64,000 nucleotides of DNA, from the NCBI GenBank assembly GCA_963804955.1, contig CAWDSQ010000005.1, forward strand, positions 128,001 to 192,000. The letters are read 5' to 3'. This document shows positions 16,508 to 36,460 of the stretch, piece after piece. This DNA comes from an uncultured delta proteobacterium (lineage in GTDB: Bacteria > Desulfobacterota > WTBG01 > CAIYCZ01 > CAIRTM01). Numbering within the stretch: the first letter of the stretch is position 1; each line of letters opens with the position of its first letter. Under the pieces are notes generated by a model. The model did not search any database. It was not told where the DNA came from and saw only the letters and a list, made by a program, of their open reading frames with translations. A program made the position numbers and the translations under genes.

Positions 16508-16514
16508 TCCTTTG

Positions 16515-17789
16515 TTAAGGGCACTGAATTATGCGCTGAGCCCACAGGCAGCCGCCGCAGGAGGGGAAGGTGTTGCCGAAGCAGTCTTCTTTGTTGTCTT
16601 TGGAGAGATTGCACCCGCCACAGAAAACGCAGGGTGAAAAATCAAAGGCCTGGAGCTTTTCCCGCAGCCGCACATAATCCTGAGACCGCCAGATATCCTT
16701 TAGAGGCTGATTGGCCAGGCAGCCCATCACACAGCGCTGCATGAACCGCTCGCGGTCATTGAGAAAGCTCACATGGCTGTGCATGAGGGGGATGCAGGGG
16801 CAGACGCTTCCGTCCCAGGCAAGGGCGCAGGATCCCCGTTCGATAAACGGGCAGGCCCGCAGCTGCGTAGCTCCGCCGCCGGGGTTCTGCGCATTCAGCG
16901 TGCGCATGACCTGCCGCAAAACGCCGCCGGTGGCATCATTGATATCCATAGCGGGAACATACAGATGCGGCGACAGCGGAGACGGGTCGGCACTGTCGGC
17001 GGCAAGCGCATCGGCATACAGCAGTTCGTCGCGCATCTCGGGGGCATAGGGCATAATATTGGTGATCATGAACCGGTCCGCCCCCAAACGCCTGCCGATA
17101 CGGAGCACCTCGGGCAGTTCGGCGATATTACGCCGCATGGCGACAAAAACAATGCCGATATGGGGACTCGGGCCCGGGCGCAGATCACGGAAGCGGGAAA
17201 CATTTTCCAGGACGCTCGGAAGCGCCGCGCCCAGGCGCACATCGGCATAGCTTTCAGGATGGGCGCCGTCAATGGACACCCACAGCACCTCAAGCCCGGC
17301 TTCGATGAGTCCAGCCGCAATAGCCTGATTCAGGAGCATGCCGTTGGTGATCAGCTCAACGTGCGGGCTCACCGAGCAAGCCTGACTGACCATGCCGAGA
17401 ATGTCGGGATGCGCCAGCGGTTCCCCGAGCCCGCCAAAGAATACCGATGCCCCGCTCCCCATATCCCGCAGCCCCTGCAGGGCAGCCGAAAATATTTCCC
17501 CGGTCATCTGCCCGAGCGTTTCATCCCAGGTGTTGCGGATGCAGGTGCGGCAGGAGAGATTGCACCGGTTGGTGGGCTCGATATAGAGCCGTGCAAGCCG
17601 GGCTGCCGGGCGGCCCAGGAGCAGGCCGTCGCGAAATTCGGTAGCAGGCACGCTGCTGCCCGGAGCAAGCCCGAAATGATCAGCAAGCTCTCTGGGAATA
17701 ATGAGCCTGCCCTGATCATCGACTAGAATGTCGTTGCAGCGTCTGGGTTTCATGTGTCTCACAAGCTGAAGGGTTGTTGTACTGCTCAC
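16515..17789 (-). CDS. radical SAM/SPASM protein with N-terminal AbrB-like domain; tungsten-cofactor oxidoreductase maturase-like
   Basis: CNLSCRTC (CxxxCxxC); SPASM cysteines; C-terminus CVFCGGC...DCFGNTFPSCGGCLWAQRIIQCP; divergent from aor. Confidence 0.8.
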   Translation of the reverse strand: MSSTTTLQLVRHMKPRRCNDILVDDQGRLIIPRELADHFGLAPGSSVPATEFRDGLLLGRPAARLARLYIEPTNRCNLSCRTCIRNTWDETLGQMTGEIFSAALQGLRDMGSGASVFFGGLGEPLAHPDILGMVSQACSVSPHVELITNGMLLNQAIAAGLIEAGLEVLWVSIDGAHPESYADVRLGAALPSVLENVSRFRDLRPGPSPHIGIVFVAMRRNIAELPEVLRIGRRLGADRFMITNIMPYAPEMRDELLYADALAADSADPSPLSPHLYVPAMDINDATGGVLRQVMRTLNAQNPGGGATQLRACPFIERGSCALAWDGSVCPCIPLMHSHVSFLNDRERFMQRCVMGCLANQPLKDIWRSQDYVRLREKLQAFDFSPCVFCGGCNLSKDNKEDCFGNTFPSCGGCLWAQRIIQCP

Positions 17790-18523
17790 CCCCGGCGGCG
17801 TGATTGCAGCTTAGAGCTTAGAAATACCACAAAAAGCCAGTCAAGTTGAGTAGAATATTTCCGGTTTTCCGGCAAAGTTCAAAAGATGGCGGCTGAAACG
17901 ACAGCCGCTGCGGCACCGCTCCGGGAACCCTTTAGCAAAGCTGCAACAACAAAATACGACTGGCAAACTGGAGCGATTCGGTTTACTGCGCTATCAAAAC
18001 GCGGTGCATCGACTATGTCTAAGGCAGGGCTTCTTTCGGACATAGCCTTTCGGCTGTCTCGCACCGACTTGACATTTCAGGCGCTTGCAGCTCGGCGTAT
18101 TGATTAGGAAGCAGTTGAATATGCTGATTAATAATAAAGTCAACGGAAAAGATACTAAGCTGCTTTGAGTTTATACGCTATGAAAAAAAATTCGGTTTTC
18201 TTTTCAAAATGTGTATGCGAAAAAGTTGACTTTTAAAAAATTTCATATTAATAAGAAGACGTTTTTTTACTGCATACATTCAATACAAAAGATTTTTACC
18301 AGTTCCCCATTCCGGGTGAGCCGAGAAAGCCGGATCAGGTATCTGGACCGCGATGTTTGCGACGGAAGTATGAAGGGAGAGAGTTGCGGCTCTTCAGGCT
18401 TTTTTTATTCAAAAAACACTCAGCTGTCAAAAGTTGCCTCCAGACTGAAGCGGAATTTATAAAAAAAAGGAATTAAAAAACTTTCGTTGCGCCTGCTCAT
18501 AGTTGAAGCAACAACATTATTAA

Positions 18524-20362
18524 ATGGAGGCCCTTAATATGGAAGCATGGAGCGGTAAAATTTTACGGGTGGATTTAACTGCGCGGGAATTTGCGTTTGA
18601 AGATATCGACCCGGAAATAGAAAAAGACTATATCGGCGGCAGAGGCGTTGGAACAAAAATCTACTGCGACGAGGTTGATGCCGACATTGATCCCCTGAGC
18701 CCTGAAAACAAGCTGATCTTCATGACCGGCCCCCTGACCGGCACAGGCGCACCATGCAGCGCCCGCTACATGGTCATTACCAAGTCGCCCCTCACCGGCG
18801 CCATTGCCTGCTCGAATTCCGGCGGGTACTTTCCCGCCGAGCTGCGGTTTGCCGGCATCGACGGCATCATTTTCGAGGGCAGGGCAGACGAGCCCGTGTA
18901 TCTCTGGATCAATGACGACGAGATCGAAATCCGCACGGCAGATCATCTGTGGGGCAAGACCACGCATGAAACCGAAGATCTGATACGGGCGGAGATTTCA
19001 GACCCCTGGCTTGCAAAGGAAATTCATATTGCCTCCATCGGCCCGGCGGGCGAAAATCTCGGCAAACTCGCCTGCATTATGAATGACAAGCACCGCGCAG
19101 CAGGCCGCTCGGGCGTGGGCGCTGTCATGGGCTCAAAGAACCTGAAGGCGGTTGTGGTTAAAGGATCAAAGGGCATTGGAAAAATAAACCGCGACGCTTT
19201 CAAGAAATCCGTGCGCACTGCCATGGATAAGCTGAAGGCCGGACCGGTTACCTCCCAGGGCCTTCCCAAATACGGCACGGCGATTCTTGTGAACATTATC
19301 AATGAGTGCGGCATCCTGCCCACCAACAATTTCCAGACAGGCACATTTGCCACAGCGGGCAAAATCAGCGGCGAAACCATTGCCGAGACAACCCTTACCC
19401 GCAACAAAGGCTGCTTTGCCTGCACCATCGGCTGCGGCAGAGCCACCAAAATTGATGACCCGAAATATCAGGGCCACGGCGAAGGCCCTGAGTATGAAAC
19501 CGTTGAGCTCATGGGCGCAGACTGCGGCATTGATAATCTCGCGGCCATCACCAAGGCAAACTATATCTGCAATGAGCTCGGCATGGACACGATATCGGCG
19601 GCCTGCACGGTTGCCACTGCCATGGAGCTCTATGAAAAGGGCTATATGCCGAAAGAGGATGCGGGCATGGATTTAAGCTTCGGCAATGCCGATGCCCTGG
19701 TTAAGCTCATTGAGCAGATGGGCCGCAGAGAAGGCCTGGGCGCAGTAGCGGCAGACGGCGGCTATGTGCTGGCGGAAAAATACGGCCACACCGAGCTGTT
19801 CATGGGCGTTAAAAAACAGGAAATACCGGCCTATGATCCGCGCGGGGTGCAGGGCATGGGCCTTACCTATGCAACGTCTAACCGCGGGGCCTGCCATGTG
19901 CGCGGCTACCTGATTGCCAATGAAGTGCTCGGCGTGCATGCGAAAATGGATCCACACACAACCAAGGACAAGCCCGCGACAGTGAAATTTTTTCAGGAGC
20001 TTACCGCGGTTGTCGATTCAGCGGGCCTGTGCCTTTTTGTAACTCTGACCCCGAACATGGGCTATGAGGACATGCGCGACATGCTCAATGCCGTGACCGG
20101 TTTTAATTACACCACGGAAGAGGTCATACGGGCCGGCGAGCGCATCTGGAACCTTGAGCGGCAGTTCAACCTCAGGGCGGGCTTTACAAAAGCCGATGAC
20201 ACGCTGCCCGAGCGCCTTCTGAAAGAACCGTTGCTGGAAGGCGGGGCCAAGGGCCTTGTGTGCGAGCTTGATGTCATGCTGCCCGAGTATTACCAGCTGC
20301 GCGGGTGGGATGAAAACGGCATTCCCACAAGCGAAAAGATTGCCGAACTCGGCCTTGCATAA
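18524..20362 (+). CDS. aor: tungsten aldehyde:ferredoxin oxidoreductase
   Basis: GKILRVDLT, YIGGRG, AAGRSGVGAVMGSKNLKA, CFACTIGC, EGPEYET, ELGMDTIS, NRGACH. Confidence 0.95.
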   Translation: MEALNMEAWSGKILRVDLTAREFAFEDIDPEIEKDYIGGRGVGTKIYCDEVDADIDPLSPENKLIFMTGPLTGTGAPCSARYMVITKSPLTGAIACSNSGGYFPAELRFAGIDGIIFEGRADEPVYLWINDDEIEIRTADHLWGKTTHETEDLIRAEISDPWLAKEIHIASIGPAGENLGKLACIMNDKHRAAGRSGVGAVMGSKNLKAVVVKGSKGIGKINRDAFKKSVRTAMDKLKAGPVTSQGLPKYGTAILVNIINECGILPTNNFQTGTFATAGKISGETIAETTLTRNKGCFACTIGCGRATKIDDPKYQGHGEGPEYETVELMGADCGIDNLAAITKANYICNELGMDTISAACTVATAMELYEKGYMPKEDAGMDLSFGNADALVKLIEQMGRREGLGAVAADGGYVLAEKYGHTELFMGVKKQEIPAYDPRGVQGMGLTYATSNRGACHVRGYLIANEVLGVHAKMDPHTTKDKPATVKFFQELTAVVDSAGLCLFVTLTPNMGYEDMRDMLNAVTGFNYTTEEVIRAGERIWNLERQFNLRAGFTKADDTLPERLLKEPLLEGGAKGLVCELDVMLPEYYQLRGWDENGIPTSEKIAELGLA

Positions 20363-20397
20363 TGCTCGGGCAAACTTTTCCGGAAAAGCGCTGAGCC

Positions 20398-20652
20398 ATG
20401 AACATAGAAGTTCGGACATTTATAAACTTTAAGAGCTATATGCCGCCGGATGCAAAAGACGGCAAGGCAGTTCTTGCCATACAAGACGGGGCAACATTTT
20501 CTGATTTACTGAAAGTTCTGGGCATACCAATGGAAGAGCCCAGGATTGTGGTGCTCAACGGCGTTTCCCAGGGTACAACTCCCGAGGTCAATACGCGCGT
20601 TTTACAGGAAGGCGATATTGTTGCCATTTTCCCCCCTATCGGGGGGGGGTGA
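20398..20652 (+). CDS. MoaD/ThiS sulfur-carrier protein
   Basis: Ubiquitin-like size; C-terminus GDIVAIFPPIGGG. Confidence 0.9.
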   Translation: MNIEVRTFINFKSYMPPDAKDGKAVLAIQDGATFSDLLKVLGIPMEEPRIVVLNGVSQGTTPEVNTRVLQEGDIVAIFPPIGGG

Positions 20653-20709
20653 GATTTAGTATATTTGGTGTTATAATAAAACAACTTAAGGGCATCAACG
20701 GGGTATACT

Positions 20710-21090
20710 ATGAAAAAAATCAAGATCGACCAGCAGAAATGCACCGGCTGCCGGAACTGCGAGACCGCCTGCTCCCTGAATCATAACGAGGATACGGTCA
20801 ATCCGCAGAAGTCAAGAATCAGGGTATACATGGAAGAGGAAAAGGACATCTACTATCCTCTCATCGCAGGCCCTTTCACTGAAGCCGAGTGCACGTCAAA
20901 GCTCATTGTCAACATCGACGGCAAGGACCATGACGAATGCACCCTGTGCAGGGCTTCATGCCCGGGCAGGCCATGGTTCAAGGAGCCCGACACGCAGGTC
21001 GCCCTGAAATGCGATTTCTGCGGTGATCCGCCCGATCCGCAGTGCGTGCTGGCATGCACCAGCGGCGCTTTGACCCTTATTGAAGTGTGA
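20710..21090 (+). CDS. 4Fe-4S protein, BamC-like small subunit
   Basis: CTGCRNCETAC, AECTSK...IDGKDHDECTLCRASCPGR.WFKEPD...LKCDFC, a pattern recalled from class II benzoyl-CoA reductase BamC. Confidence 0.8.
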   Translation: MKKIKIDQQKCTGCRNCETACSLNHNEDTVNPQKSRIRVYMEEEKDIYYPLIAGPFTEAECTSKLIVNIDGKDHDECTLCRASCPGRPWFKEPDTQVALKCDFCGDPPDPQCVLACTSGALTLIEV

Positions 21091-21220
21091 TTGCATTGTT
21101 GCTCTTTTCTTGTGCTGCAGCTGCAAGACCACGGGCAAGCTCACGCAGGGAAAATACTTTAATCTTTAGACCGGGAAACGGCAAAAGTTTTTTGCCGGTG
21201 CTTCTGGAGGTTTAATCACG

Positions 21221-24200
21221 GTGTCCAGTCAGTCCGGATGCGGTTGCTGCCCACAGCCCGCTCTACCTATGTCTGATCAGAATCTGAATTGCGTTGGAAC
21301 TGCCAGTTCAGCTGTAATAAAAGACGATGGACCCAAAGTCGGGTCCGTGCTTGTTGTCGGCGGCGGCGTCGGCGGCATTCAGGCAGCCCTTGACCTTGCC
21401 GAGTCAGGCTACTTTGTCTATCTGGCCGAAGAGACCCCTGCCATCGGCGGGGTCATGGCGCGCCTTGATAAGACCTTCCCCACCAATGACTGCTCCATGT
21501 GCATTCTGTCTCCCAAGCTCGTGGAGTGCGGCAGGCATTTAAATATCAAAATCATACCCTACTCTGAAATTCAGAGCGTTGACGGCAGGCCCGGCAATTT
21601 TTCAGTAAAGATAAAACGGCATGCAAGCTTTGTCGATTCTGTAAAATGCACGGGCTGCAGCGAGTGCGCCCAGGCCTGCCCGGTTGAGGTTCCCAATGAG
21701 TTTGAAGAAGGCCTCACCAACAGAAAAGCCATTTACCGGCCCTACCCCCAGGCAGTGCCCGAATGTTTTCACCATTGATAAAATAGCAAAAGCGCCCTGC
21801 CGCGACGGCTGCCCCGCAGGCATCAATGTGCAGGGCTATGTCGCCCTGATAGGGCGGGAAAAATACCGGGAAGCACTCGATCTTATACGGGAAAACCTGC
21901 CCCTTCCCGGCGTGATCGGCAGAGTATGCCCGCACCCCTGCGAAACCGTCTGCAACCGCACAAAAATTGATGAGCCCCTTTCCATCTGCAGCCTGAAGCG
22001 CTATGCCGCAGACCAGGCAGGCTCTGAATTTGTAGCGCCCGCGATTGAAAAGCGGGAAGAGAAAGTCGCGATTATCGGCTCGGGCCCGGCTGGACTTACC
22101 TGCGCATACTTTCTTGCCCTCAAGGGCTTTAGCGTCACCATATTTGAAGCCCTTCCTGTTGCCGGCGGCATGCTGCGCGTGGGCATTCCCGACTACCGCC
22201 TGCCTCCGCCCGTCATCGAGTCTGAAATCGATATCATTAAAAAACTTGGCGTTGAGATAAAGACGAATACTCCGGTAAGCAAAGGCTCAATCGATACTCT
22301 TTTATCCGATGGCTATAAAGCCGTTTTCATAGCGGCAGGCAGTCACCGGAGCATGCCTCTTGACATACCGGGCGAGGATGCGAAGGGCGTTATTCCCGGC
22401 GTTGAATTTTTGCGCACGGTGAGCCTGGGCAAAAAAGTTGCAGTCGGCAAAAAGGTCGCCATTATCGGCGGCGGCGATGTGGCCATTGATGCTGCGCGCA
22501 CATCACTGCGCATGGGCGCCGAACAGGTTTCAATCATCTACCGCCGCTCCCGCAGGGAAATGCCCGCAAGCGCCGATGAGATTGAAAGCGCCCTGTATGA
22601 AGGCATAGCCATTGAATATCTGGCAGCCCCGGTGCGGGTTGTGGCTGAAAACAATACGGTGAAGGGGCTTGCCTGCGTGCGCATGAAGCTCGGGAGCCCC
22701 GACATGAGCGGCCGCAGAAGGCCCGTGCCGATCGAAGGCTCGGAATTTATCCTTGATGTCGACACGATCATCCCTGCCATCGGGCAGTTAAGCGATCTTT
22801 CATTCCTGTCTGATGCCGAAGAGGTGAAATGCTCCAAGCATGACCGCATCATTGCAGATTCGGTAACCCTTGCAACAAGCCGGACAGGCGTATTTGCCGG
22901 CGGCGACTGCGTGTCCGGGCCCTGGATCGCGATCGAGGCGGTTGCGGCAGGCAAGCGCGCAGCCATATCAATTGAGCGGTTTTTAAACGGGCAGGATCTC
23001 AAGGCAGGCCGTGAAAAACCTCCGGCGGTGAAGCCGTCTCCCGAGCTTGAAGACCGGTTTATGCACAAGCCCAAGGCTCCGCGCCAGAAAATGGCGCATA
23101 TTCCCAACGACAAAAGGAAGGGCAATTTCAGCGAGGTGGAGCTTGGCTTCACGCGTGAAGAAGCTCTCAAAGAAGCAGAGCGCTGCCTGAACTGCGGCAT
23201 TTGTTCAGAGTGCATGCAGTGCGTGGCAGCCTGCAAGGCAGGCGCCATAGACCACAGCTGTACCGAAAAGATAGATGAGATCAATGTGGGCTCGGTCATA
23301 CTCAGCCCGGGCTTTGATGAATTCAGGACCGATGCCGAGTATCTGAGCCAGAGCGGCTACACAAGCCTTATCTCGCAGTACGGCTACAGCAAATACCCCA
23401 ATGTCCTCACCAGCATCGAGTTTGAGCGAATACTGTCAGCCTCCGGCCCGTATGAGGGGCATCTCTTGCGGCCTTCAGACAAAAAGCCGCCTAAAAAAAT
23501 CGCCTGGATACAGTGCATCGGCTCCCGCGACGAAGCCTGCGACAGCGGCTACTGCTCATCGGTGTGCTGCATGTATGCCATCAAAGAGGCGGTCATTGCA
23601 AAAGAGCACAGCCCGACCCCACTGGACGTGACCATTTTCTACATGGACATGCGCACCTACGGCAAGGACTTTGACAAGTATTATGAGCGCGCCCGGGATG
23701 AGCACGGCATACATTTTGTACGCTCCAAGGTCTACGGTATCAGCGAGCCGAACGGCAATGGCAACCTTGCAGTCCGGTATGCCGAAGAAGGCGGCGCTGT
23801 GCGCACGGATGAATTCGACATGGTCACCCTGTCGGTTGGCTTGAAGCCGCGCAAAACCGCTGTTGAGCTTGCCGGCCGGCTCGGCATTGATCTTAATCAC
23901 TATAATTTCTGCAAGACCGACGGCTTTACGCCCGTCAACACATCACGCGATGGCATTTATGTATGCGGCGCTTTTCAGGGGCCAAAAGACATTCCTGAAA
24001 CCGTCATGCAGGCAAGCGGCGCAGCCGCGGCATCGGCAGCCCTTCTGTCTGAAGCCCGGGGAACCCTTGTGCAGAAAAAAGCCTTCCCCCCGGAAAAGAT
24101 CATCACCGGCGATCCGCCCCGGATCGGGGTTTTTGTCTGCCACTGCGGCATCAATATCGGCGGGGTGGTGAATGTGGCCGAGGTGAAGAAGTACGCGGCA

Positions 24201-27467: not shown

Positions 27468-27494
27468 AAAATGAGAGCGGAACTAATAAGCGCA

Positions 27495-28508
27495 ATGGAA
27501 ATAAAGATACTCGACAAAAAAGATCTGCCCGCATTCGTAAGCGAACTGGCCTCCGGCTTTCAGGTGTTTGCTCCTGTCAGAAAAAAGGAAGGCGTCGTGT
27601 TTGCGGCTGTGGCATCAAGTGATGACATATGCTTTGATGCCGCCAATACCAAAAAAAGCGTCAAGGAGCATTTTCTCCCTCAGCGCGAGCAGCTTTTTGC
27701 CTACAAAGAAGAAGAGATACGCGAGCCGTCTTTTCCCGATACGCACATGGTGGTCCTGGGCGTCAGGCCCTGTGATGCCCGAAGCCTTGCGATTCTCGAT
27801 AATGTATTCAACAGCAAAGACTACCCGGATCCCTATTATCTGAACAAGCGGGGCAACACCGTGGTTATCGCCATGGGCTGCACAGCACCTGAAAGCACCT
27901 GCTTTTGCACCTCCATCGGCGGCGACCCGTTTGCAACAGATGGCGCTGATGTGCTTATGATTGATACCGGAGAGGCATATGTGCTGCAGCCGGTGACTGA
28001 AAAGGGCAACGGCTTTCTTGCCGCCAGGAAAGCACTAACCCCCCCCGCTGACAGCCACGCGCAGGCACAAAAGAAAACTATGGAAGGCGGCCGCGCAGCT
28101 CTGAAACCACAGGTTCAGCCTGCGGAAGTAAAAAAGAAGCTGGATGAAAATTTTGAAAGCCCGATATGGGCGACTTTGCATGAAAAGTGCCTCGGCTGCG
28201 GCATATGCACATTTCTGTGCCCGACCTGTCACTGCTTTGATATGCTTGACGAGTCCATCGGCACGGCAGGCGAGCGCATCCGCATCTGGGATTCCTGCAT
28301 GTTTCCCCTGTTTACCCTCCACGCCTCAGGGTCAAACCCGAGGCCCGGCGCCAAGGAGCGGGTGCGGCAGCGGGTCATGCATAAGTTTAAATATTTTGTC
28401 GACAATTTCGGCACGGCAGCCTGCACGGGCTGCGGCAGATGCATCAAGTGCTGCCCGGTCAATCTTGATATCCGGCAGGTGCTCAATCAGATACAGGATC
28501 AAAAATAG
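27495..28508 (+). CDS. flxB: FlxB (AsrA-like) 4Fe-4S protein
   Basis: GVRPCD, CFCTS, CLGCGICTFLCPTCHCF, WDSC, CTGCGRCIKCCP. Confidence 0.85.
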   Translation: MEIKILDKKDLPAFVSELASGFQVFAPVRKKEGVVFAAVASSDDICFDAANTKKSVKEHFLPQREQLFAYKEEEIREPSFPDTHMVVLGVRPCDARSLAILDNVFNSKDYPDPYYLNKRGNTVVIAMGCTAPESTCFCTSIGGDPFATDGADVLMIDTGEAYVLQPVTEKGNGFLAARKALTPPADSHAQAQKKTMEGGRAALKPQVQPAEVKKKLDENFESPIWATLHEKCLGCGICTFLCPTCHCFDMLDESIGTAGERIRIWDSCMFPLFTLHASGSNPRPGAKERVRQRVMHKFKYFVDNFGTAACTGCGRCIKCCPVNLDIRQVLNQIQDQK

Positions 28509-28514
28509 ACAGCT

Positions 28515-29354
28515 ATGAAGAATCCCTACATACCCGAGCAGGCGCGCATCGAGCGTATCGTCATTGAAACCGATGACAGAAACATCAAGTCCTTTGACCT
28601 TGCCCTGATTGATACGGACAGGGCCAAAAGCTTTCAGTTCGTGCCGGGCCAGTTTGCCGAGCTTTCCCTGACCGGAAAAGGCGAAGCGCCCTTCGGCATT
28701 GCCTCATCCCCGAGCGAGCAGGGCATGCTCAAATTCAGCATCAACAAGGCGGGCCTGTTCACTACGGCCCTGCACAATTTGGAAGAAGGGGCGCTTGTGG
28801 GCATTCGCGCCCCCCTGGGCAATTATTATCCGGTCAAAGAGCTTGAAGGCAAAAATGTGGTGATCGTAAGCGGCGGCTTTGCCTTTACAACGCTCCGGTC
28901 GCTGATCATCTATCTGCTGCAGGAGGATATCCGGCCGAAGTATAAGGATATTACCGTCATTTATGGCGCGCGGCGGCCGGGCATGCTTCTGTACCGCGAT
29001 GAGCTTGAGGCCTGGGCCAAACGCTCAGATATTAACCTGCATATCACCGTTGATGCCCCGGCTGAGGGGTGGAGCGGTCTGGTTGGGTTTGTGCCCGCCA
29101 TCACCAAAGAGGTGGCGCCGTCTGCAGACAATGCCGCTGCGCTGGTGTGCGGCCCGCCTGTCATGATAAAATATACGATTCCTGTTTTAAAGGAGCTGGG
29201 ATTTTCACCCGAGCAGATCATACTCTCGCTTGAAATGCGCATGAAATGCGGCATCGGCATGTGCGGCCGCTGCAATATCGGCGGCAAATACGTGTGCAAG
29301 GACGGCCCGGTCTTTACGCTGGCGCAGTTAAACCAGATGCCTGATGAATACTAG
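28515..29354 (+). CDS. flxA: FlxA FAD/NAD(P)-binding [2Fe-2S] oxidoreductase
   Basis: PGQF, CGPPVM, LEMRMKCGIGMCGRC...CKDGPVF. Confidence 0.88.
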   Translation: MKNPYIPEQARIERIVIETDDRNIKSFDLALIDTDRAKSFQFVPGQFAELSLTGKGEAPFGIASSPSEQGMLKFSINKAGLFTTALHNLEEGALVGIRAPLGNYYPVKELEGKNVVIVSGGFAFTTLRSLIIYLLQEDIRPKYKDITVIYGARRPGMLLYRDELEAWAKRSDINLHITVDAPAEGWSGLVGFVPAITKEVAPSADNAAALVCGPPVMIKYTIPVLKELGFSPEQIILSLEMRMKCGIGMCGRCNIGGKYVCKDGPVFTLAQLNQMPDEY

Positions 29355-29376
29355 AAAATTATTGGAATTTGGATTT

Positions 29377-29561
29377 TAGAGCATTTTTCAAAATAGTATA
29401 GCCATATACGCACAGGTCGAGCTTTTGGTGAGTGCAGCCCGTGCGGTTCGAGCGATTGGCTTTGCATCATTAGCTGGCTTCACTTTGCGAGAATTTAGCA
29501 CGGGCAAACGAATCAAAAGTTCACCTGTGCGCACGGCTACAACAAAAAGAAAAATGCTCTA
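29377..29561. mobile_element. MITE, copy 2, inserted between flxA and hdrC
   Basis: Same terminal inverted repeats and closely similar interior to 16186-16371; TA at both ends. Confidence 0.85.
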
Positions 29562-29609
29562 GATTTTGGACTTATAAATCCAAAATATCTCAACACGGAG
29601 GTAAAAGTT

Positions 29610-30080
29610 TTGGAAGCAATTGAAATAAACAAACTGAATCCTGACTTCAAGCATGAGGTTTCAGAGCATCCCGGCGGCGACGGCATCAAGGCGTGCTTTG
29701 CCTGCGGCGCCTGCACCGGCGGCTGCCCGGCATCGGAGGCTGACCCTGCCTATGATCCGCGCAAGATCATCCGGATGATACTGCTCGGGATGAAAGAAAA
29801 AGTGCTTTCCTCAGACCTCATCTGGCTGTGCAGCACGTGCTACTCCTGCTCCTTTCATTGCCCGCAGAATGTGCAGTTCGTGAAGGTCATGGGCGTGCTG
29901 CGCGACATGGCGGTGAAGGAAGGCTATGCGCTGCCCGGCTTTCTTAAAACCATGGAGTCCATCGACAAATTTTCGCAGACCGTGCGGCACAATATGGTCA
30001 TGTCGATTGTTGATAAAAAGAAAGAGGATTTCAGCATTAACACCAAAGACCTTTTGAAACAGGTCGCAGACAGACTGTAA
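29610..30080 (+). CDS. hdrC: heterodisulfide reductase subunit C-like
   Basis: GGAGG RBS and TTG start; CFACGACTGGCP, PRKIIRM, IWLCSTCYSCSFHCP. Confidence 0.88.
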   Translation: MEAIEINKLNPDFKHEVSEHPGGDGIKACFACGACTGGCPASEADPAYDPRKIIRMILLGMKEKVLSSDLIWLCSTCYSCSFHCPQNVQFVKVMGVLRDMAVKEGYALPGFLKTMESIDKFSQTVRHNMVMSIVDKKKEDFSINTKDLLKQVADRL

Positions 30081-30089
30081 GGAACAGCT

Positions 30090-33000
30090 ATGAGCGTACA
30101 GGCAAAAAACACAGGTGCAGTTATGGTGGTCGGGGGCGGCATTGCCGGCATTCAGGCATCCCTTGATCTGGCAGAGCTTGGCTATTTTGTCTATCTGGTG
30201 GAGCAGTCCTCGGCCATCGGAGGCACCATGGCCCAGCTGGACAAGACATTTCCAACGCTTGACTGCGCAATGTGAATTTTGTCTCCCAAACTCGTTGAGT
30301 CTGGAAGACATGCAAATATAAAGATCATATCCAATGCCCAGGTTGCGTCCATCGCGGGCGAGCCCGGAGCATTCAGGGTCAGTGTGCTCAAAAAGCCGCG
30401 GTACGTGGACGAGGAGAAGTGCACGGCCTGCGGCACCTGCACGTCATACTGCCCGGTTGAAATTCCCGATGAGTATAATGAGCGCCTGAGCAAAACCAAG
30501 GCACTCTATATTGCCTATCCGCAGGCAGTGCCTGCCTCATTTACCATCGACCCGAAGCACTGCCTTTTTCTGGTGAAAAAGGAATGCCGGCAGTGCGAGC
30601 AGGCCTGCAAGGACATTAAGGCAATCCAGCTCAACCAGAAGGACGAGACCATAGAGCTTGACGTTGGCGCACTGATTCTTGCGCCCGGCTTTGACGAGTT
30701 TGAAGCCCGAAAAAAGCAGGATTACGGCTATGGCGAGTTTGCCAATGTCGTCACGAGCATTGAGTTTGAAAGAATTCAGTCAGCCTCCGGCCCGTTTCAG
30801 GGCCATGTTGTGCGGCCCTCGGACAGCAAGCCCCCAAAAAAAATAGCCTTTCTCCAGTGCGTGGGCAGCCGCGACATGGCCACCAACAGCTACTGCTCCT
30901 CGGTCTGCTGCACCTATGCGATCAAGGAGGCGATCATTGCAAAAGAGCATGACCCTGACCTTGATGTCGCCATTTTCTATATGGACATACGAACGCAGGG
31001 CAAGGGCTTTGAAAGCTTTTTTGAACGGGCTAAAAATCAGTTCGGCATCCGATTCGTGCGCAGCAAACTGGCTGAGCTTGAAAAGGTTCCGGACACGGAA
31101 GATATGCTGCTGAAGTTTGTGACCGAAGAGGGCAGACATGAGCAGGAAGCCTTTGACCTTGTGGTGCTGTCGGTGGGACTTGAGCCCTCGCGCTCGTCAA
31201 AGGACCTTGCGGCCAGGCTCGGCATAAAGCTCAATAAAGAGGGCTTTTGCAGCACCGGGGAATTTTCTTCGACCAGCACAAGCCGCGAAGGCATTTTTGT
31301 GGCAGGCGCATTCCAGGCGCCCAAGGACATTCCCGAAAGCGTCATTCAGGCAAGCGGCTCGGTGGCCCTTGCGTCATGCCTTCTGTCTGATGTCCGGGGC
31401 ACCATGGTGACAAAGCAGGAGTATGTTGCCGAGACTGATGTGTCTGCGGAAAAGCCCCGCATCGGCGTTTTCGTCTGCCACTGCGGCATCAACATTGCCG
31501 GCGTTGCCGATGTTGCTGCAGTCAAGCAGTATGCCGCAGGCGCTTCCCGATGTCGTGTACGCGGAGAATTCCCTGTATGCCTGCTCGCGTGACTGCCAGG
31601 AAAAAATAAAGCAGGTTATTAAAGAGCAGAACCTGAACCGCGTGGTGGTGGCGGCCTGCACGCCGCGCACGCATGAGCCCCTGTTTCAGGAAACATTGCG
31701 CGAGGCGGGCTTGAACCGCTGCCTGTTTGAAATGGCCAATATCCGCGACCACTGCACCTGGGTGCATGCCCATGAGCCGCAGGCTGCAACGCAGAAGGCA
31801 AAAGACCTCGTGCGCATGGGCGTTGCCAAGGCGCGGCTCCTGTCGGCAATGAAGGAAGAGACCATCGGCGTAGACCCGAAGGGTCTGGTGATCGGCGGCG
31901 GGCTTTCCGGCATGACAGCGGCCCTTGCCCTTGCAGACCAGGGCTTTGATTGTTACCTGGTTGAAAAGGAGCAGGAGCTTGGCGGCCATTTACGGGGTCT
32001 GTTCTCGACGCTGCATAAAAACGATCCCCAGAAGCTTCTGCACGAGACCGCTGAAAAAGTAAAAAATCATCCGCGCATAACCCTTTTTACCGGCACTGAA
32101 ATAAGCAAAATCAAAGGCTATATCGGCAACTTTACCACAACGATCGGATCAAATGGCACAGCGCGCGAGCTTGCCCACGGCATAATTGTCGTGGCAACCG
32201 GCGCCGATGAATATCAGCCCGATGAATATCTCTACGGCCGGCATGACGGCGTTGTCACGCAGAAGCAGCTTGGCGCAAAACTTGCCGCCGAATCCTATGC
32301 GCTCTCCGATATCAAAGACGTGGTCATGATACAGTGCGTCGGCTCCCGCACGAAGCAGCACCCCTACTGCAGCAAGCTGTGCTGCAACACGGCAATAAAA
32401 AATGCCCTGAAGATAAAGGAGCTGAACCCGTCGGCCAATGTGTATATCCTCTATAAAGACATTCGCTCCTACGGGTTCAATGAAGAATTTTACACCGAGG
32501 CCCGCAGAAAAGGCGTCATGTTCATACGCTATGATGATGCGGCTAAGCCGGTTGTGCAGGAAGAGGACGGCAGCCTTACCGTATCGGTTCTTGACCCACT
32601 GCTGGGTGAGCAGATTATGCTGCGGCCGTCGCTTGTGGCTCTTGCCGCAGCGGTTGTGCCCGCGGCAATGACAAGATATCAAAGCTTTTGAAGGTGCCGC
32701 TCAATGCCGAAGGCTTTTTTCAGGAAGCCCATGTGAAGCTGCGGCCCGTTGACTTTGCAACCGACGGCGTATTTGTCTGCGGGCTTGCCCATTCGCCGAA
32801 ATCAATGGATGAGGCTATCTCGCAGGCCCAGGCAGCGGCCGCTCGCGCAGCTATTCCGCTTGCTCGCGGCTATGTGCGGGTTGAGCCTGTTGTCAGCTCC
32901 GTGAATGAGGATGCGTGTTTCGGCTGCGGCATCTGCGAATACCTGTGCCCGTACGGCTCGATCACGGTACAGGCGACCGAAAGCGGCGACAAGGCCCGAA

Positions 33001-33125
33001 CGATTTCCGCCTCCTGCAAAGGCTGCGGCGTCTGCGCTTCAAAATGCCCGCGCAAGGCTATCAGCATGGGCAGGTTCACCGATGAGCAGATTCTTTCGCA
33101 GATCAGCGCGCTGGTGGAGAAATAA
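30090..33125 (+). CDS. hdrA: selenocysteine-containing HdrA (UGA 30273-30275; frameshifts near 31540 and 32670)
   Basis: [23 protein letters not shown] continues in frame and aligns with NDCSMCILSPK of hdrL; duplicated HdrA cores plus C-terminal ferredoxin. Confidence 0.9.
30280..30310 (+). promoter_or_regulatory. bacterial SECIS-like hairpin
   Basis: TGTCTCCCAAACTC-GTT-GAGTCTGGAAGACA, 12 of 14 pairs; G-first loop 18 nt after the UGA. Confidence 0.75.
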
Positions 33126-33131
33126 ATTCTA

Positions 33132-33190
33132 GTAGGGGCGCACCTGTGTGTGCGCCCTGGTTATGGGCAGACACACAGGTCTGCCCCTAC
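33132..33190. repeat. GTAG-type REP doublet
   Basis: GTAGGGGCGCACCTGTGTGTGCGCCC...GGGCAGACACACAGGTCTGCCCCTAC; related half copy near 13020-13045. Confidence 0.75.
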
Positions 33191-33242
33191 CGGAACCCCG
33201 GTTTCAACTGGATGATTTATTAATTAGATACAGGGTCACAAC

Positions 33243-34020
33243 ATGAGCTTTGAACCGAAAATCCTTGGCATCCTGTGCAACTGGTGCGCCTACGCAGGAG
33301 GTGATCTGGCCGGTGTATCGCGGCTCCAGTATCCGCCCAATATGCGGGTGGTGCGCGTCATGTGCAGCGGCAGGGTTGAGCCCTCGTTCATAATGCAGGC
33401 GCTCATCGACGGCTGCGACGGCGTCTGGGTGGGTGGCTGACACCCGGGCGAATGTCATTACCAGTCTGGTAATTGCGAAGCAGTCAATATGATAAACGTT
33501 GTTAAAAGGATACTGCGCCATAGTGCAGTAAATCCTGAACGTGTGCTCCTTGAATGGGTGTCGGCTGCCGAGGCAGTGCGCTTTGCCGAGGTGGTCACAT
33601 CCTTTACCGGTAAAATCCGTGAGCTTGGCCCATTGAGTGATGACGCGAAGCAGAACACCGAGGCCCAACAGCTTAAATTGCATGCTGCACTAAATGCCTC
33701 AAACAGCGAAAAGCTTCGCTGGGTTGCTGCCAAGCAGACCGAGTTCATGAAAGACGGCAACAGGTACGGTGAGGTTTTTACAGCTCATGAAACCGGCCGT
33801 TTTCTTGACGGCGTGATCATCGAGGAGATGATCATTCAGCAGATACTGCTGCTTCTGCAGCAGGAAGCCCTGTCAGTGGTGGAGATAGCCAAAAAGCTTG
33901 CGGTGACGCCGCAGTCAATATTTACCTATATAGTGAGTCTGGGGCGGAAAAAAATGGTCGAGGATTGCCCATATTCGCGACCGCGACCCCTTATACACAT
34001 TGAGCAAACAGGCAGCTTAG
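33243..34020 (+). CDS. mvhD: selenocysteine-containing MvhD with C-terminal helical/HTH extension (BamF-like; UGA 33438-33440; frameshift near 33960)
   Basis: VGG-UGA-HPGECHY aligns with SGCHPGDCHY of flxD; the frame continues into ORF 33489; tail LSVVEIAKKLAVTPQSIFTYI is HTH-like; likely end ...LYTLSKQAA* at 34020. Confidence 0.88.
33457..33473 (+). promoter_or_regulatory. bacterial SECIS-like hairpin
   Basis: ATTACCA-GTC-TGGTAAT perfect stem; G-first loop 23 nt after the UGA. Confidence 0.75.
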
Positions 34021-34035
34021 CAGGATATAAAAATC

Positions 34036-35670
34036 GTGGCAGCAAAGAAAGTATTAGTCATAGGAAGCGACTCCGCAGGCCTTCAGTCCGCCCTGGAGCT
34101 TGCCAATGCCGGCAATGAGGTGTATCTGGTTGACCATTCACCCGGCATCGGCGGTGAAGGGCTCGGCGCAAGTCATGATGCCGGTTTTTCCTCTTCGCGC
34201 TGGCAGGAGGTAAAGAGCCATAAAAATATACGGCTTATCGGCAATGTTGCCTTTGATGATATCAAGAAAGACAATGGCGGCTTCAGGGTTAAGCTCAGAA
34301 AAACAGCCGCGCGCATCATCGAAGAAAAGTGCGACAGCTGCGGCGAGTGCATCAAGGTCTGCCCCGTGCACCTCTGGGACGACTGCAGCGCAGGCCTTGC
34401 CCTGCGCACCGGTATCGATTTTTTCAACACCGAAACAAAAGCATACAATCTCATTAAAGAGCGGCCGATCTGCGAGGAAACCTGCCCGGTGCATCTGGAT
34501 GTGCGCGGCTATGTAGGACTGATTGCCGACGGCAGTTTCAAGGAAGCCTTCGAGCTGATCAGGCAGCGGATTATTTTTCCCGCAACACTGGGAAGGGTCT
34601 GTCCGCATCCATGCGAGGAAAAATGCAACCGGACCTATAAGGACAAGCCCCTGTGCATCAGAGACCTGAAGCGCTTTGCAGCAGACTTCGGTGATGAAGA
34701 CGCCATTCCCAAAATCCATCCTAACGGCAAAAAAGTGGCCGTCATAGGCGCAGGGCCTGCAGGCCTTGCCTGCGCCTATGATCTGGCTTGCGCCGGCTAC
34801 GGGGTCACGATCTTTGAAGCGCTTCCTGTTGCAGGCGGCATGCTTGCAGTTGGTATTCCAAAGTACCGCCTCCCGCGCGATATACTCAACCGGGAAATTG
34901 ATTATGTGAAACAGCTGGGCGTTGAAATAAAAACCGGTGTGCGCATCGGCGCAGACATTGCTTTTGAGGATCTTTTCAAGCAGGGCTATCAGGCGGCCTT
35001 CATTGCCGTAGGGTCCCACAGGGATCAAAAGCTGAAAATCCCCAACGAAGAGGCTGACGGTGTTGTTTCCGGCATAGAATTTCTGCGCGATGCCGCTCTT
35101 GGCAATCCCGTGAAGCTGGGCAAACGCGTCGCCATACTCGGAGGCGGCAATGTTGCCATGGATGCAGCCCGTACATCCCTTCGGCTCGGCGCGCAGGAGG
35201 TAATCATCCTCTACCGCAGAACCCGCGATGAAATGCCTGCCATCCCCGAGGAGATAGAGGCTTCGCTGCATGAAGGCATTAAAATTGAATACCTTGTGGC
35301 GCCGCTGGAGGTTCTGGTTCAAAACGGAAAAGTTGCCGGGCTGAAATGCAACCGCATGGCCCTTGGCGAGCCTGATGCATCGGGCAGGCGCCGGCCCGTG
35401 CCGATTGAGGGTTCGGAATTCGAGCTGGCCCTTGATACGGTAATACCTGCCATCGGCCAGGCCTCGGATATCTCGTTTCTGCCGCAGGACAGCGGCATTG
35501 CCGCAACCACCTGGGGCACTATTATTGCCGATCCGAAAACCTGCGCCACCAGCAGGGCCGGCGTATTTGCCGGCGGAGACTGCGTGACCGGGCCATGGAT
35601 TGCCGTGGGAGCGGTTGCCGCAGGCAAAGACGGAGCAGCAGCAATTCATCAGTATCTTCAAGAGAAATAG
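34036..35670 (+). CDS. degenerate HdrA N-terminus + ferredoxin + GltD/NfnB-like FAD/NAD(P)H oxidoreductase (N-half of a split HdrL)
   Basis: VIGSDSAG (degenerate Rossmann motif), CDSCGECIKVCP, GRVCPHPCE, IGAGPAG, GGGNVA..YRRT, FAGGD. Confidence 0.85.
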   Translation: MAAKKVLVIGSDSAGLQSALELANAGNEVYLVDHSPGIGGEGLGASHDAGFSSSRWQEVKSHKNIRLIGNVAFDDIKKDNGGFRVKLRKTAARIIEEKCDSCGECIKVCPVHLWDDCSAGLALRTGIDFFNTETKAYNLIKERPICEETCPVHLDVRGYVGLIADGSFKEAFELIRQRIIFPATLGRVCPHPCEEKCNRTYKDKPLCIRDLKRFAADFGDEDAIPKIHPNGKKVAVIGAGPAGLACAYDLACAGYGVTIFEALPVAGGMLAVGIPKYRLPRDILNREIDYVKQLGVEIKTGVRIGADIAFEDLFKQGYQAAFIAVGSHRDQKLKIPNEEADGVVSGIEFLRDAALGNPVKLGKRVAILGGGNVAMDAARTSLRLGAQEVIILYRRTRDEMPAIPEEIEASLHEGIKIEYLVAPLEVLVQNGKVAGLKCNRMALGEPDASGRRRPVPIEGSEFELALDTVIPAIGQASDISFLPQDSGIAATTWGTIIADPKTCATSRAGVFAGGDCVTGPWIAVGAVAAGKDGAAAIHQYLQEK

Positions 35671-35678
35671 GAAACAGT

Positions 35679-36460
35679 ATGCCGGAGCAAGCAGGACGCT
35701 ATATAATTAATTATACCGATATCCCGGCAGAGCGGCAGCGCATGCCAGAGCTCGAGGTGGCCGCCCGGATACAGAGCTTTGACGAAGTCGAGGTCGGCTT
35801 CAGCCGGGAGGCTGCCCAGCAGGAAGCCCGCCGCTGCCTCAGCTGCAGAAGGTGCCTCGGGTGCGGGCTTTGCCTTGCCGTATGCAAGCCCAGGGCAATA
35901 GTGTTTGAGCAGCAGGATGACATTATTGACATCACATTTGATGATGTCGTTATCTCCTCTACTGCAGATGAGCAGATGCCAATCAAAAAAGGCGAATTCG
36001 GCTACCGGCAGTATGCCAATGTCGTGAGCGGTCTTGAGTTTGAAAAAATCCTGTCGAGCGACGGCCCCTATGGCGGCATGGTGCTGCGGCCCTTCGACGG
36101 ACGTATTCCTCAAAAAATCGCCTTTATTATTGCCGAGCAGACGCAAGCGGCAGCATGGCCTATAGTATGAATCAGGCAGCTCTGCTGCTTGAGAAAGTGA
36201 AAGACGCCGGAATCTTTGTATTTTGTCCTGAAGGCCAGTGTGCTGCAGAGTCTTCCGGCCCGCATATCACATTAAAAAAAGCGGCCATAGCCGGTGTCAA
36301 AGAAAATGCGGAAAGCGGTAATATCCTCATCGCGTATACGGAAAACGGCGGTGCGCAGGAAGAGGATTTTTGCATGGTGGTAGTTGTGCGCCCGCCTGAA
36401 CCCTCCCGGGCGATACAGGAAATTTGCAGCAAATTCGGCAAGAAGCCCTTAGCCTTATAG
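35679..36460 (+). CDS. ferredoxin + truncated HdrA-core fragment (C-half of a split HdrL; frameshift near 36150)
   Basis: EARRCLSCRRCLGCGLCLAVC, YANVVSGLEFEKILSSDGPYGG..RP.D...P.KIAFI; lacks the CxGSR/YCSxVCC motifs. Confidence 0.7.

Follow-up and report, generated by a model that had tools for sequence, protein, structure and literature searches.

A conserved gene cluster that joins a canonical tungsten aldehyde oxidoreductase to HdrA-, Flx- and NfnB-like proteins in an uncultured delta proteobacterium

Background

To our knowledge, the tungsten aldehyde oxidoreductases (AOR) are the only enzymes that reduce non-activated carboxylic acids, and we know of only a few types of partners that supply them with electrons, or relieve them of electrons, at the approximately -580 mV that is the standard potential of the aldehyde/carboxylate couple, namely, free ferredoxin, NAD in the case of AorABC, and the Bfu module of tungsten oxidoreductase 1 (WOR1). 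Can AOR also be served by an electron-splitting core of the heterodisulfide reductase (Hdr) type? The question is raised by a stretch of 64,000 nucleotides (hereinafter the window) from an uncultured, sulfate-reducer-type delta proteobacterium of the phylum Desulfobacterota (GenBank assembly GCA_963804955.1, here G000; contig CAWDSQ010000005.1, here C5, positions 128,001 to 192,000). In the window, a co-oriented run of genes on the plus strand (18524-36460; all coordinates are window positions unless stated otherwise) starts with the gene for AOR and continues with genes for a BamC-like ferredoxin, HdrA-type proteins with NfnB-like modules, a full set of Flx proteins and two putative selenoproteins, whereas the genes for a radical SAM/SPASM protein and a MarR-family regulator are located upstream. 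A Pfam search over the 18 cluster proteins recovered every gene named in the initial annotation of this DNA, in the same position and on the same strand.

We conclude that the cluster is a real, conserved variant of the multi-subunit tungsten oxidoreductases and, apparently, one that has not been described; we found no description of an enzyme that combines AOR, a BamC-like subunit, HdrA and Flx in the open-access literature searched. The initial annotation had gone further and proposed an undescribed bifurcating tungsten/selenium complex. The parts of this proposal and their conservation are borne out, whereas the assembly into one complex, the direction of the reaction and the nucleotides involved are what we infer from the genes; that the products form a soluble AOR-Hdr-Flx/Nfn-like bifurcating complex with tungsten, selenium, iron-sulfur clusters and flavins is the reading that we favour over the others, at about even odds.

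The catalytic subunit and its maturation proteins

The large subunit (612 amino acids (aa); 18524-20362, plus strand) matches the Pfam families AFOR_N (E 2e-86) and AFOR_C (E 1e-153), and its best solved relatives in a PDB search are WorL of Acetomicrobium mobile (9mqx_D, 714 bits), AOR of Pyrococcus furiosus (1aor, 702 bits) and AorB of Aromatoleum aromaticum (8c0z_A, 638 bits), with weaker scores against FOR (340 bits), WOR5 (239 bits) and BamB (220 bits). The protein contains the stretches gegpeyetv and snrgachvrg, confirming the previously noted AOR motifs EGPEYET and NRGACH, and its EGPEYE, NRGxCH, CxxCxxxC and DSAGLC stretches align with 1aor; by the roles assigned in P. furiosus AOR, we take these to be the catalytic Glu/His motifs and the four Cys of the [4Fe-4S] cluster. 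A phylogenetic tree of 96 AOR-family sequences was built with FastTree, with the AOR of locus L001, from a relative with ~95% identical DNA (G001; loci L001 and L074), as the stand-in for the window protein. This sequence groups with those of L002-L007 in a clade with a support of 98, distant from BamB; more generally, the AORs that have small subunits comprise a supported clade that excludes the archaeal single-subunit AORs and is remote from BamB. To judge by its sequence, then, the tungsten subunit encoded in the window is a canonical AOR sensu stricto and not BamB. It is the sole canonical AOR among the approximately 20 AOR-family loci of the genome, the next paralogue being 38% identical. 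This AOR-family set is unusually large, with 28 AFOR_N matches at these ~20 loci, and at one of them (positions 460610-465911 of contig C7), AFOR_N occurs together with CCG frames that contain TGA.

The gene immediately behind aor (20398-20652, plus strand) encodes a small MoaD/ThiS-like protein (Pfam ThiS / Ub-Mut7C) with a C-terminal Gly-Gly-Gly, is kept in all of L001-L007 and probably serves cofactor maturation, rather than providing a subunit. Divergent from aor is the gene for the radical SAM/SPASM protein (16515-17789, minus strand; Pfam Radical_SAM and SPASM), which matches NCBIfam TIGR04317 (W_rSAM_matur) with E 1e-80 and 271.5 bits, under the cut-off of 380, and appears to be a relative of the maturases of tungsten-cofactor oxidoreductases. 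In G001, ~440 bp replace window positions 16162-17649 and the radical SAM gene is missing, so it is not a fixed part of the cluster.

The BamC-like small subunit

The next gene (20710-21090, plus strand) encodes a Fer4 protein of 126 aa with 12 Cys, all 12 of which are invariant across 24 homologues, which implies three [4Fe-4S] clusters. It had been likened to BamC, with an ordinary AorA-type protein as the alternative, and in the PDB search, BamC (4z3w_E, E 5.7e-36; aligned over residues 11-137 of 179) is indeed far ahead of AorA (8c0z_C, E 1.9e-12) and WorS (9mqx_E, E 5e-7). In the tree of this family, however, nine long forms (178-187 aa) that are encoded beside BamB-like genes make up a clade of their own with a support of 96, and the window protein falls outside it, in a group of 36 short forms. 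The small subunit is thus best described as BamC-like, a member of a short sister group and not a canonical BamC. It is the only copy in the genome at E<1e-8, and the family is widespread, with matches at E <= 1e-10 in 164 of the 401 genomes sampled from the phylum. A co-folding prediction for the small subunit and the first thioredoxin reductase (TrxR)/ferredoxin unit of HdrA2 scored 0.00 against a mark of 0.32, without controls, and counts neither way.

Fused double HdrA proteins, the long MvhD and selenocysteine

Two proteins of the cluster, HdrL1 (21221-25793, plus strand), a fusion of HdrA with a GltD/NfnB-like module that was recognised with Pfam and through the PDB entries 5odc (HdrA) and 9bov, 9n5u, 8oh5 and 4ylf_B (NfnB-like), and HdrA2 (30090-33125, plus strand; Pfam HdrA pieces at 30279-33125), are collinear: a first TrxR domain with an inserted ferredoxin domain is followed by the HdrA N-domain, a second TrxR domain and a C-terminal ferredoxin domain. 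The BamE-like open reading frames (ORFs) of bam clusters match both proteins over the full length, collinearly and with 46-49% identity, and those in L126, L128, L130 and L133 break at HdrA2 residue 61/62, which is the position of the putative selenocysteine (Sec), in keeping with a BamE-like HdrA2. HdrL1 is the Cys form of this BamE-like fused double HdrA, and its NfnB/GltD-like NAD(P)H-FAD module is nested in the inserted ferredoxin domain, with one cluster motif on either side. A kinship between the NfnB-like modules and AorC was considered and rejected; the listed solved relatives include no chain of AorABC (8c0z), and the module thus is not of the AorC type.

The putative Sec of HdrA2 is encoded by TGA at 30273-30275, which aligns with the last Cys of DCSMC in HdrL1. 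The long MvhD (~259 aa; 33243-34020, plus strand; Pfam FlpD remnant at 33489-34118) contains a second such codon, TGA at 33438-33440 (GG-U-HPGECHY), aligned with the Cys of SG-C-HPGDCHY in FlxD. The relatives retain a single in-frame stop at both sites (in HdrA2 of G001, this stop is TGA), and the genome has tRNA-Sec and SelA, all in line with the Sec codons of the initial annotation. The potential selenocysteine insertion sequence (SECIS)-like fold after TGA 30273 is unconvincing (-12.7 kcal/mol, z = -1.59, equalled by 14 of 200 shuffled sequences) and that after TGA 33438 lends no support (z = +0.22); the Sec assignment accordingly rests on the Cys alignment, the conservation of the stop in relatives and the presence of tRNA-Sec and SelA. 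The long MvhD aligns with the long MvhD proteins of bam clusters up to residue 204-240, including the extension, and the comparison with BamF therefore holds as far as collinearity is concerned; it fails in the location of Sec. In all five window-type loci (the window, L074, L106, L025 and L118), the stop follows GG, with Cys at CNWC, whereas in six of the seven bam-type loci it follows CxW, and each type has Cys at the Sec site of the other.

Behind the long mvhD lie two genes that look like a degenerate HdrA scaffold bearing a second NfnB-like module. HdrL2a (34036-35670, plus strand; Pfam HdrA-N and GltD-like) consists of an HdrA N-part, in which GSDSAG replaces GxGxxG, one ferredoxin motif and an NfnB-like NADP(H)-FAD module with the PDB relatives 9bov, 9n5u, 8oh5 and NfnB (4ylf_B, 5jca_L). 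HdrL2b (35679-36460, plus strand), assigned by its translation and collinearity, contains the second ferredoxin motif and a Cys-poor remnant of the HdrA TrxR domain; the Cys-rich CVGSRD...CC motif is missing from both.

Flx proteins, HdrC and the place of HdrB

Between HdrL1 and HdrA2, the domain set of FlxA-D known from FlxABCD-HdrABC is fully represented on the plus strand, by FlxD, an MvhD-like [2Fe-2S] adaptor (25921-26361; Pfam FlpD, E 4e-55), a FlxC-like iron-sulfur protein (26362-27315; FrhB_FdhB_C and Fer4), a FlxB-like iron-sulfur protein of the sulfhydrogenase beta / AsrA type (27462-28508; Fer4_22, E 1e-33; NCBIfam ShyB/AsrA/HydB, under the cut-off) and a FlxA-like NAD(P)H:FAD [2Fe-2S] subunit (28515-29354; FAD_binding_6, NAD_binding_1 and DHODB_Fe-S_bind), which matches the gamma subunit of sulfhydrogenase I (9nez_C, E 1e-53) and NfnA (4ylf_A, E 8e-16). 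The HdrC-like protein that follows (156 aa; 29610-30080, plus strand; Fer4_8/Fer4_17) has two CX2CX2CX3C motifs, matches TIGR03290 (HdrC) with E 2e-29 and 102 bits at a cut-off of 160, and has no other close copy in the genome; the Flx genes, HdrC and the small subunit are each single-copy.

The initial annotation had stressed the lack of hdrB. Indeed, none of the 18 cluster proteins scores with the CCG/HdrB domain of Pfam, and all 23 CCG matches in the genome are on contigs other than C5; elsewhere in the genome, a distal hdr locus on C14 has an HdrC+CCG frame of its own. The corollary that this kind of enzyme is devoid of a disulfide-reducing site is true of the cluster and does not extend to its closest kin. 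Of the closest AOR orthologues, L003 alone was annotated with Pfam, and here the genes for the small subunit and HdrA are separated by one for an HdrD/BamD-like protein of 389 aa (Fer4_8 and CCG, E 1.8e-23), a copy of which, 86% identical, is found in the same location in L105; in L076-L079, this location is occupied by an HdrC-like match, and in L027, an HdrD-like CCG part is fused to the double HdrA. Conversely, L025 (585 aa) and G315 (66% identical over the full length) encode a fusion of HdrC with an NfnB-like module and no CCG, and at least 8 of the 150 matches listed from the phylum sample, G315 included, span HdrC and NfnB-like in one frame of 596-681 aa. Among the Pfam-annotated loci, CCG is found in L003 and L027 without an NfnB-like module, and the NfnB-like module in L025 and the window without CCG. 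The absence of HdrB is therefore best viewed as a lineage-specific variant and not as a rule of the enzyme type, and in the CCG-less variant, the NfnB-like NADP(H) module is the likely partner of HdrC.

In yet another locus, L111 (in G194), the HdrC gene is followed by NuoE/NuoF-like genes. This locus has an AOR-family gene (43%), the small subunit, a double HdrA, an HdrC-like protein without CCG, and NuoE-, NuoF- and 2Fe-2S/Fer4-type genes, that is, a Bam-like set without BamB and without BamD.

Conservation and evolution of the cluster

We examined 70 loci with AOR relatives, at thresholds of 40% identity and 80 bits and within the fetched flanks. The small-subunit gene adjoins AOR at 11 of these, 8 of which also have an HdrA-like gene in the flank. 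At six of the seven loci where AOR is at least 70% identical (L001-L004, L006 and L007), the order AOR-MoaD-small subunit is followed by HdrA, FlxD and FlxA; the seventh, L005, has AOR-MoaD only. The linkage of aor to hdr and flx genes, on which the initial annotation depended, is also kept in G212, a genome from another family, and in L027, from a metagenome-assembled genome of Dehalococcoidales (AOR-ferredoxin-[HdrD~double HdrA]-FlxDCBA). Two further loci, L025 and L118, have the order double HdrA(Sec)-MvhD(Sec)-[HdrC~NfnB-like fusion] beside AOR and/or the small subunit. When the survey started from the small-subunit gene, an HdrA-, HdrC- or HdrD-like gene lay behind it, no more than 1.5 kb away, at 17 of 29 loci from the phylum, a count that includes close kin.

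The most complete counterpart is G212, where the entire order of 15 genes is preserved, each gene in a single frame; HdrA2 and MvhD each contain one in-frame stop. The gaps that in the window measure 117-255 nt and are filled with repeats are 3-20 nt long in G212 (20 nt at FlxA-HdrC and 3-5 nt at FlxC-FlxB and HdrA2-MvhD). Identity to G212 is 64% for FlxC, 72% for HdrC and 61% for HdrL2a (a 553-aa ORF), and HdrL2b is a single ORF of 272 aa. The affinities of the individual genes differ, though: AOR of the window is 72-76% identical to the L003 type and 55% to G212, whereas FlxA is 44-46% and 73% identical and FlxD 58-64% and 80% identical, respectively. This incongruence implies different histories, with exchangeable catalytic and electron-transfer modules, and points to module exchange between AOR and the Hdr/Flx part.

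At several loci, the small subunit keeps other company. In L121, L122 and L123 (G176, G145 and G112) and in L114 (G008), an AOR-family gene and a short small subunit are located beside genes for subunits of 2-oxoacid:ferredoxin oxidoreductase; L121-L123 add a double HdrA and a second set of AOR-family, small-subunit and HdrC genes, and L121 has a CCG gene (of these loci, Pfam was run on L121 and L114 only).

Relationship to known enzymes

Class II benzoyl-CoA reductase (BCRII) of Geobacter metallireducens, Bam[(BC)2DEFGHI]2, shares with the cluster a tungsten-pterin subunit of the AOR family together with a small subunit that has three [4Fe-4S] clusters, a fused double HdrA in which Sec occupies the same position, an MvhD that exceeds the usual length by more than 100 aa and, in the logic proposed here, an HdrA-type bifurcating flavin whose low-potential arm would feed the tungsten enzyme. 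As set out in a cryo-electron microscopy preprint on BCRII (10.64898/2026.04.10.717634), which names the models 29QY, 29RC and 29RN, BamC is located on the inserted ferredoxin domain of BamE, which makes the low-potential arm; electrons enter through BamF, where Sec19 lies near the N-terminal CxWU, the first flavin of BamE bifurcates, the low-potential electron passes via the inserted ferredoxin domain to BamC and BamB, and the high-potential electron goes to BamD. In contrast to BCRII, the cluster encodes a canonical AOR of another clade (714 bits to WorL vs 220 to BamB), HdrC only in place of a BamD/CCG protein, a small subunit of 126 aa (178-187 aa in bam clusters) from outside the BamC clade, and a long MvhD with Sec at GG-U, not at CxW-U as in the BamF type; domains of BamGHI (NuoEFG/HydABC-like) are absent from the 18 cluster proteins, FlxABCD and the NfnB-like modules taking their place, whereas L111 does have NuoE/F-like genes.

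With FlxABCD-HdrABC of Desulfovibrio vulgaris, an enzyme linked to alcohol and aldehyde metabolism in the account of PMC10084766, the cluster has in common the set and order of FlxA-D and relatives of HdrA and HdrC; the differences are the absence of HdrB, the fused double HdrA that is present twice, the extra NfnB-like modules, and the AOR and BamC-like genes in the same run. A further parallel comes from D. multivorans, in which a Sec-containing HdrA1, co-localised with MvhD1 and a pyridine nucleotide-disulfide oxidoreductase, was found only with butanol, propanol and butanoate (PMC5109826), as might be expected of a protein of alcohol/aldehyde metabolism.

The closest solved large subunit (9mqx_D, 714 bits) belongs to Class IV WOR1, WorABCSL of A. 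mobile and Eubacterium limosum, which, according to PMC12318220, oxidises aldehydes and passes the electrons to more than a single carrier, reducing NAD(P)+ and ferredoxin at once. The bifurcating module differs, being of the HdrA/Nfn type in the cluster and of the BfuABC type (WorABC) in WOR1, and so does the small subunit, with three clusters as opposed to four in WorS (match E 5e-7), a distinction drawn in PMC13328260. The five classes of tungsten oxidoreductases as laid out in PMC13328260 include no Hdr-type class, and clusters like the present one would presumably be placed in Class II or, through the IPR023753 criterion of that scheme, in Class III; the typing of clade 87, as given in PMC12318220, has the BF, N, M and U types only.

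AorABC of A. aromaticum, a Class III, NAD-linked enzyme, resembles the cluster in its AOR large subunit (638 bits), small iron-sulfur subunit and flavin/NAD site, and differs in the small subunit, that of the cluster being less similar to AorA (E 1.9e-12) than to BamC (E 5.7e-36). Its operon, too, presumably has MoaD-like and maturase genes nearby. With NfnAB (NfnSL), the resemblance lies in single modules: the two NfnB-like modules match 4ylf_B (E 3e-98 and 3e-93) and 5jca_L (E 4e-89 and 3e-92), and FlxA is distantly NfnA/PyrK-like. The name HdrL was introduced for a fusion of HdrA and glutamate synthase in Desulfobacterium autotrophicum HRM2 (PMC2702500); in the legend to Fig. 4 of that paper, Aor5 appears together with a ferredoxin and an Fe/S protein in the gene lists of the hdr loci drawn, with no comment in the legend on the Aor neighbour. 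In the cluster, unlike Nfn and HdrL of HRM2, the NfnB-like modules are inserted into HdrA-derived scaffolds or joined to them and are encoded in the same run as AOR. Frames of the HdrL type, ~1400-1520 aa long and with NfnB-like modules, number dozens among the 150 matches listed from the phylum sample, so HdrL is not unique to D. autotrophicum, contrary to the 2009 statement in PMC2702500.

A hypothetical mechanism and its alternatives

If the products do form one complex, AOR and its three-cluster small subunit would sit on the low-potential arm of the BamE-like HdrL1/HdrA2, in the same manner as BamBC on BamE. Flx, with the MvhD-like adaptors FlxD and long Sec-MvhD, would be the point of electron entry, FlxABC contributing a pyridine-nucleotide site that is connected through these two adaptors, and HdrC with an NfnB-like module would occupy the high-potential arm, the NfnB-like NADP(H)-FAD modules of HdrL1 and HdrL2a being reached via the HdrC-like two-cluster protein. 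The arms other than that of AOR would then end in pyridine-nucleotide sites that replace the CCG-type disulfide reductase, and flavin-based bifurcation (or confurcation) would link the aldehyde/carboxylate couple with two couples of NAD(P)(H). This could take an Nfn-like form in which AOR stands in for ferredoxin and electrons from NADPH, the donor at the middle, pass to NAD+ at high potential and to the carboxylate at low potential, or run in reverse; by the potentials of the carriers, this would be the feasible scheme with pyridine nucleotides on two arms. Or else, it could resemble WOR1, with the aldehyde as the donor and ferredoxin and NAD(P)+ as acceptors, which would require AOR to be at the middle port.

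Were this correct, an HdrA/Flx/Nfn-type partner would add a further, apparently unclassified, electron route for AOR, and an ordinary AOR would sit on the same electron-splitting core that enables BCRII to reduce aromatic rings. The core would then be a swappable platform, the relatives of which have HdrD, NfnB-like, Flx or NuoEF-like ports, with implications for energy conservation in sulfate reducers and syntrophs of sediments, for the evolution of BCRII and for biocatalysis that converts acids to aldehydes at the expense of NAD(P)H.

Several considerations weigh against the single complex. Functional coupling through free ferredoxin would also account for a conserved order of genes. If two arms end in pyridine nucleotides, the driving force would be small unless the NADPH/NAD+ pair is used as in Nfn. 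Furthermore, the short small subunit occurs without any Hdr gene within 1.5 kb at 12 of the 29 loci from the phylum, in some cases next to 2-oxoacid oxidoreductase genes; found also beside AOR-family genes in the absence of Hdr, it is not specific to Hdr partners. The exchangeability of modules implied by the identities to L003 and G212 belongs here as well.

The alternative that survives best, possible in our estimate if on the doubtful side, is that the locus encodes two separate, co-regulated enzymes, a two-subunit, ferredoxin-dependent AOR of the WorLS type and a Flx-Hdr/Nfn-like ferredoxin:NAD(P)+ bifurcating enzyme that recycles the ferredoxin. The 12 Hdr-less loci fit this alternative, as do L108, L110, L112, L113 and L120, where no Hdr is found nearby in larger stretches, the incongruent similarities of AOR and Flx/Hdr, the AOR-MoaD pair that is all that L005 retains, and the precedent of Desulfovibrio, where Flx-Hdr and AOR are treated as separate enzymes of ethanol metabolism in PMC10084766. 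It accounts less readily for the HdrA-, HdrC- or HdrD-like genes directly behind the ferredoxin gene at the other 17 loci (kin among these are not independent), for the HdrD~double HdrA fusion directly behind the small subunit in L027, and for the 3-20 nt gaps at the measured junctions of G212; moreover, BCRII, the one homologous system for which a structure is available, has BamC docked on BamE (10.64898/2026.04.10.717634).

Unlikely, in our view, is a division of the run into two tandem complexes, AOR-small subunit-HdrL1-FlxABCD and an NADPH-linked bifurcating HdrC-HdrA2(Sec)-long MvhD(Sec)-HdrL2ab, the latter with free ferredoxin or a product encoded elsewhere as its low-potential partner. 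Both halves come with an HdrA and an MvhD-type adaptor of their own; the first stands alone in L003 and L027 as AOR-Fd-(HdrD)-HdrA-FlxDCBA, and the second, as double HdrA(Sec)-MvhD(Sec)-HdrC~NfnB, is found without Flx in L025 and L118, where AOR-Fd accompanies it. Against this, the two halves are joined in the same order in G000, G001 and G212, and in L025 and L118 it is the second-half type that adjoins AOR and/or the small subunit, so that either half can be the partner of AOR.

Returning to the single complex, its most specific form would be a transhydrogenase of the Nfn type with AOR in place of ferredoxin, RCHO + H2O + NADH + 2 NADP+ <-> RCOOH + NAD+ + 2 NADPH, which, together with three attendant conjectures, we consider improbable as it stands. 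In this form, the low-potential iron-sulfur arms would connect two kinds of bifurcating flavin, of the HdrA and the NfnB type, given that HdrA holds the NfnB-like module within its inserted ferredoxin domain; the long MvhD would be a selenenylsulfide switch, formed by Sec66 of GG-U and Cys15 of CNW-C, with Sec on the partner opposite to that in BamF; and the cluster would represent a wide group within the AOR family, in which the third port of the HdrA core may be CCG/HdrD, NfnB-like, Flx or Bfu-like.

Frame breaks

The reading frames of the window break at approximately 21757 (HdrL1), 31538 and 32664 (HdrA2), 33964 (long MvhD, where the frame runs to 34118) and 36137 (HdrL2b). Compared with G001, four of these are window-specific single-base indels, at 31538 (+1), 32664 (-1), 33964 (+1) and 36137 (-1); in G001, HdrA2 is one frame of 1014 aa with a single TGA and HdrL2b is in a single frame. 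G001 has coding indels of its own, at window positions 20914, 22210 and 28078, where the window is intact. Contigs from independent public metagenome runs (X1, X2 and X4) also depart from the window: those with one base fewer at 31539 make up 9.97 of 17.5 depth in X1, 11.5 of 18.3 in X2 and 0 of 6.32 in X4, those with an extra T at 32663 make up 4.37 of 8.71, 10 of 17.2 and 0 of 6.75, and at 33964, one base fewer is seen in the entire depth of all three (8.75 of 8.75, 16.2 of 16.2 and 5.91 of 5.91). The break near 21757 is within a run of T and is found in G001 as well; the contigs of X2 that are one base shorter here (16 of 31.3 depth) give the continuous frame ...AVPECF-TIDKIAKAPCRDGCP, so an in-frame form of HdrL1 exists, but it was seen in X2 only (0 of 5.35 in X1 and 0 of 5.31 in X4), and together with the break shared with G001, this counts against the reading of a single complex. 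The genome is indel-prone in general, with AFOR_N matches in 2-3 pieces at 6 loci.

The breaks in the cluster thus probably are assembly indels and not signs of decay. That hdrL1, hdrA2, mvhD and hdrL2b are frameshifted pseudogenes of a decaying cluster, as five breaks in 15 kb of assembly and the shared break near 21757 might suggest, is very improbable and was rejected, given that four breaks are absent from G001, that three of those and the one at 21757 are absent from contigs of independent runs, that G001 is broken in three places where the window is intact, that many other genes of the genome are broken likewise, and that every cluster gene is intact in G212. One apparent split is a real gene boundary, the only true one among them, namely, that between HdrL2a and HdrL2b, where the stop at 35670 is followed by a start nine bases on (35679), as is also the case in G001 and G212; of the split hdrL in the initial annotation, this boundary remains, and the other interruptions are put down to the assembly.

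Outside the cluster, the gene for a P-type ATPase (43184-45827, minus strand) is split into two overlapping ORFs and differs from G001 by indels at 44435, 44701 and 44753, probably further assembly errors.

Transcription signals, flanking genes and repeats

The sole strong terminator-like hairpin on the plus strand (37406-37436, with a 14-bp stem) is past the end of the cluster. Terminator-like hits across the region are near chance (34 vs 25.2 +/- 5.5 in shuffled sequences), so that the lack of internal terminators is weak evidence of an operon. Contigs from metatranscriptomes cover eight stretches of the cluster and cross the FlxD/FlxC and HdrC/HdrA2 junctions, weak evidence again, as RNA libraries may contain DNA. 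The four public runs were used as Logan contigs, the depth of which is unsuited to ranking expression, and the shares of the runs (0.2-0.33) were not used to assign a habitat.

The gene for a MarR-family regulator upstream (15742-16170, minus strand; Pfam MarR, E 1.6e-8), of which G001 has a counterpart, might conceivably control the cluster. The remaining flanking genes are unrelated and encode a tail-specific protease, a carboxyl transferase, the P-type ATPase, an RND efflux system and two-component systems. Just behind the cluster, 930 bp (36476-37405) that are unique within the genome are missing from G001; the small ORFs inside this segment have no Pfam match.

The gaps within the cluster are occupied by repeats that lie outside the enzyme genes. 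REP-like (repetitive extragenic palindromic) GC-rich repeats fill the FlxC-FlxB gap (27316-27461) and the HdrA2-MvhD gap (33126-33242), with 12 and 11 further matches within the genome, respectively. The FlxA-HdrC gap contains a repeat of ~190 nt (29375-29563) that resembles a miniature inverted-repeat transposable element (MITE) and has 14 further matches in the genome by blastn, including a second copy in the window (16185-16372), between marR and the radical SAM gene; at least nine copies among the matches listed span ~180-195 nt, with 70-87% identity. It is at the copies of this repeat that the depth of the metagenome contigs peaks.

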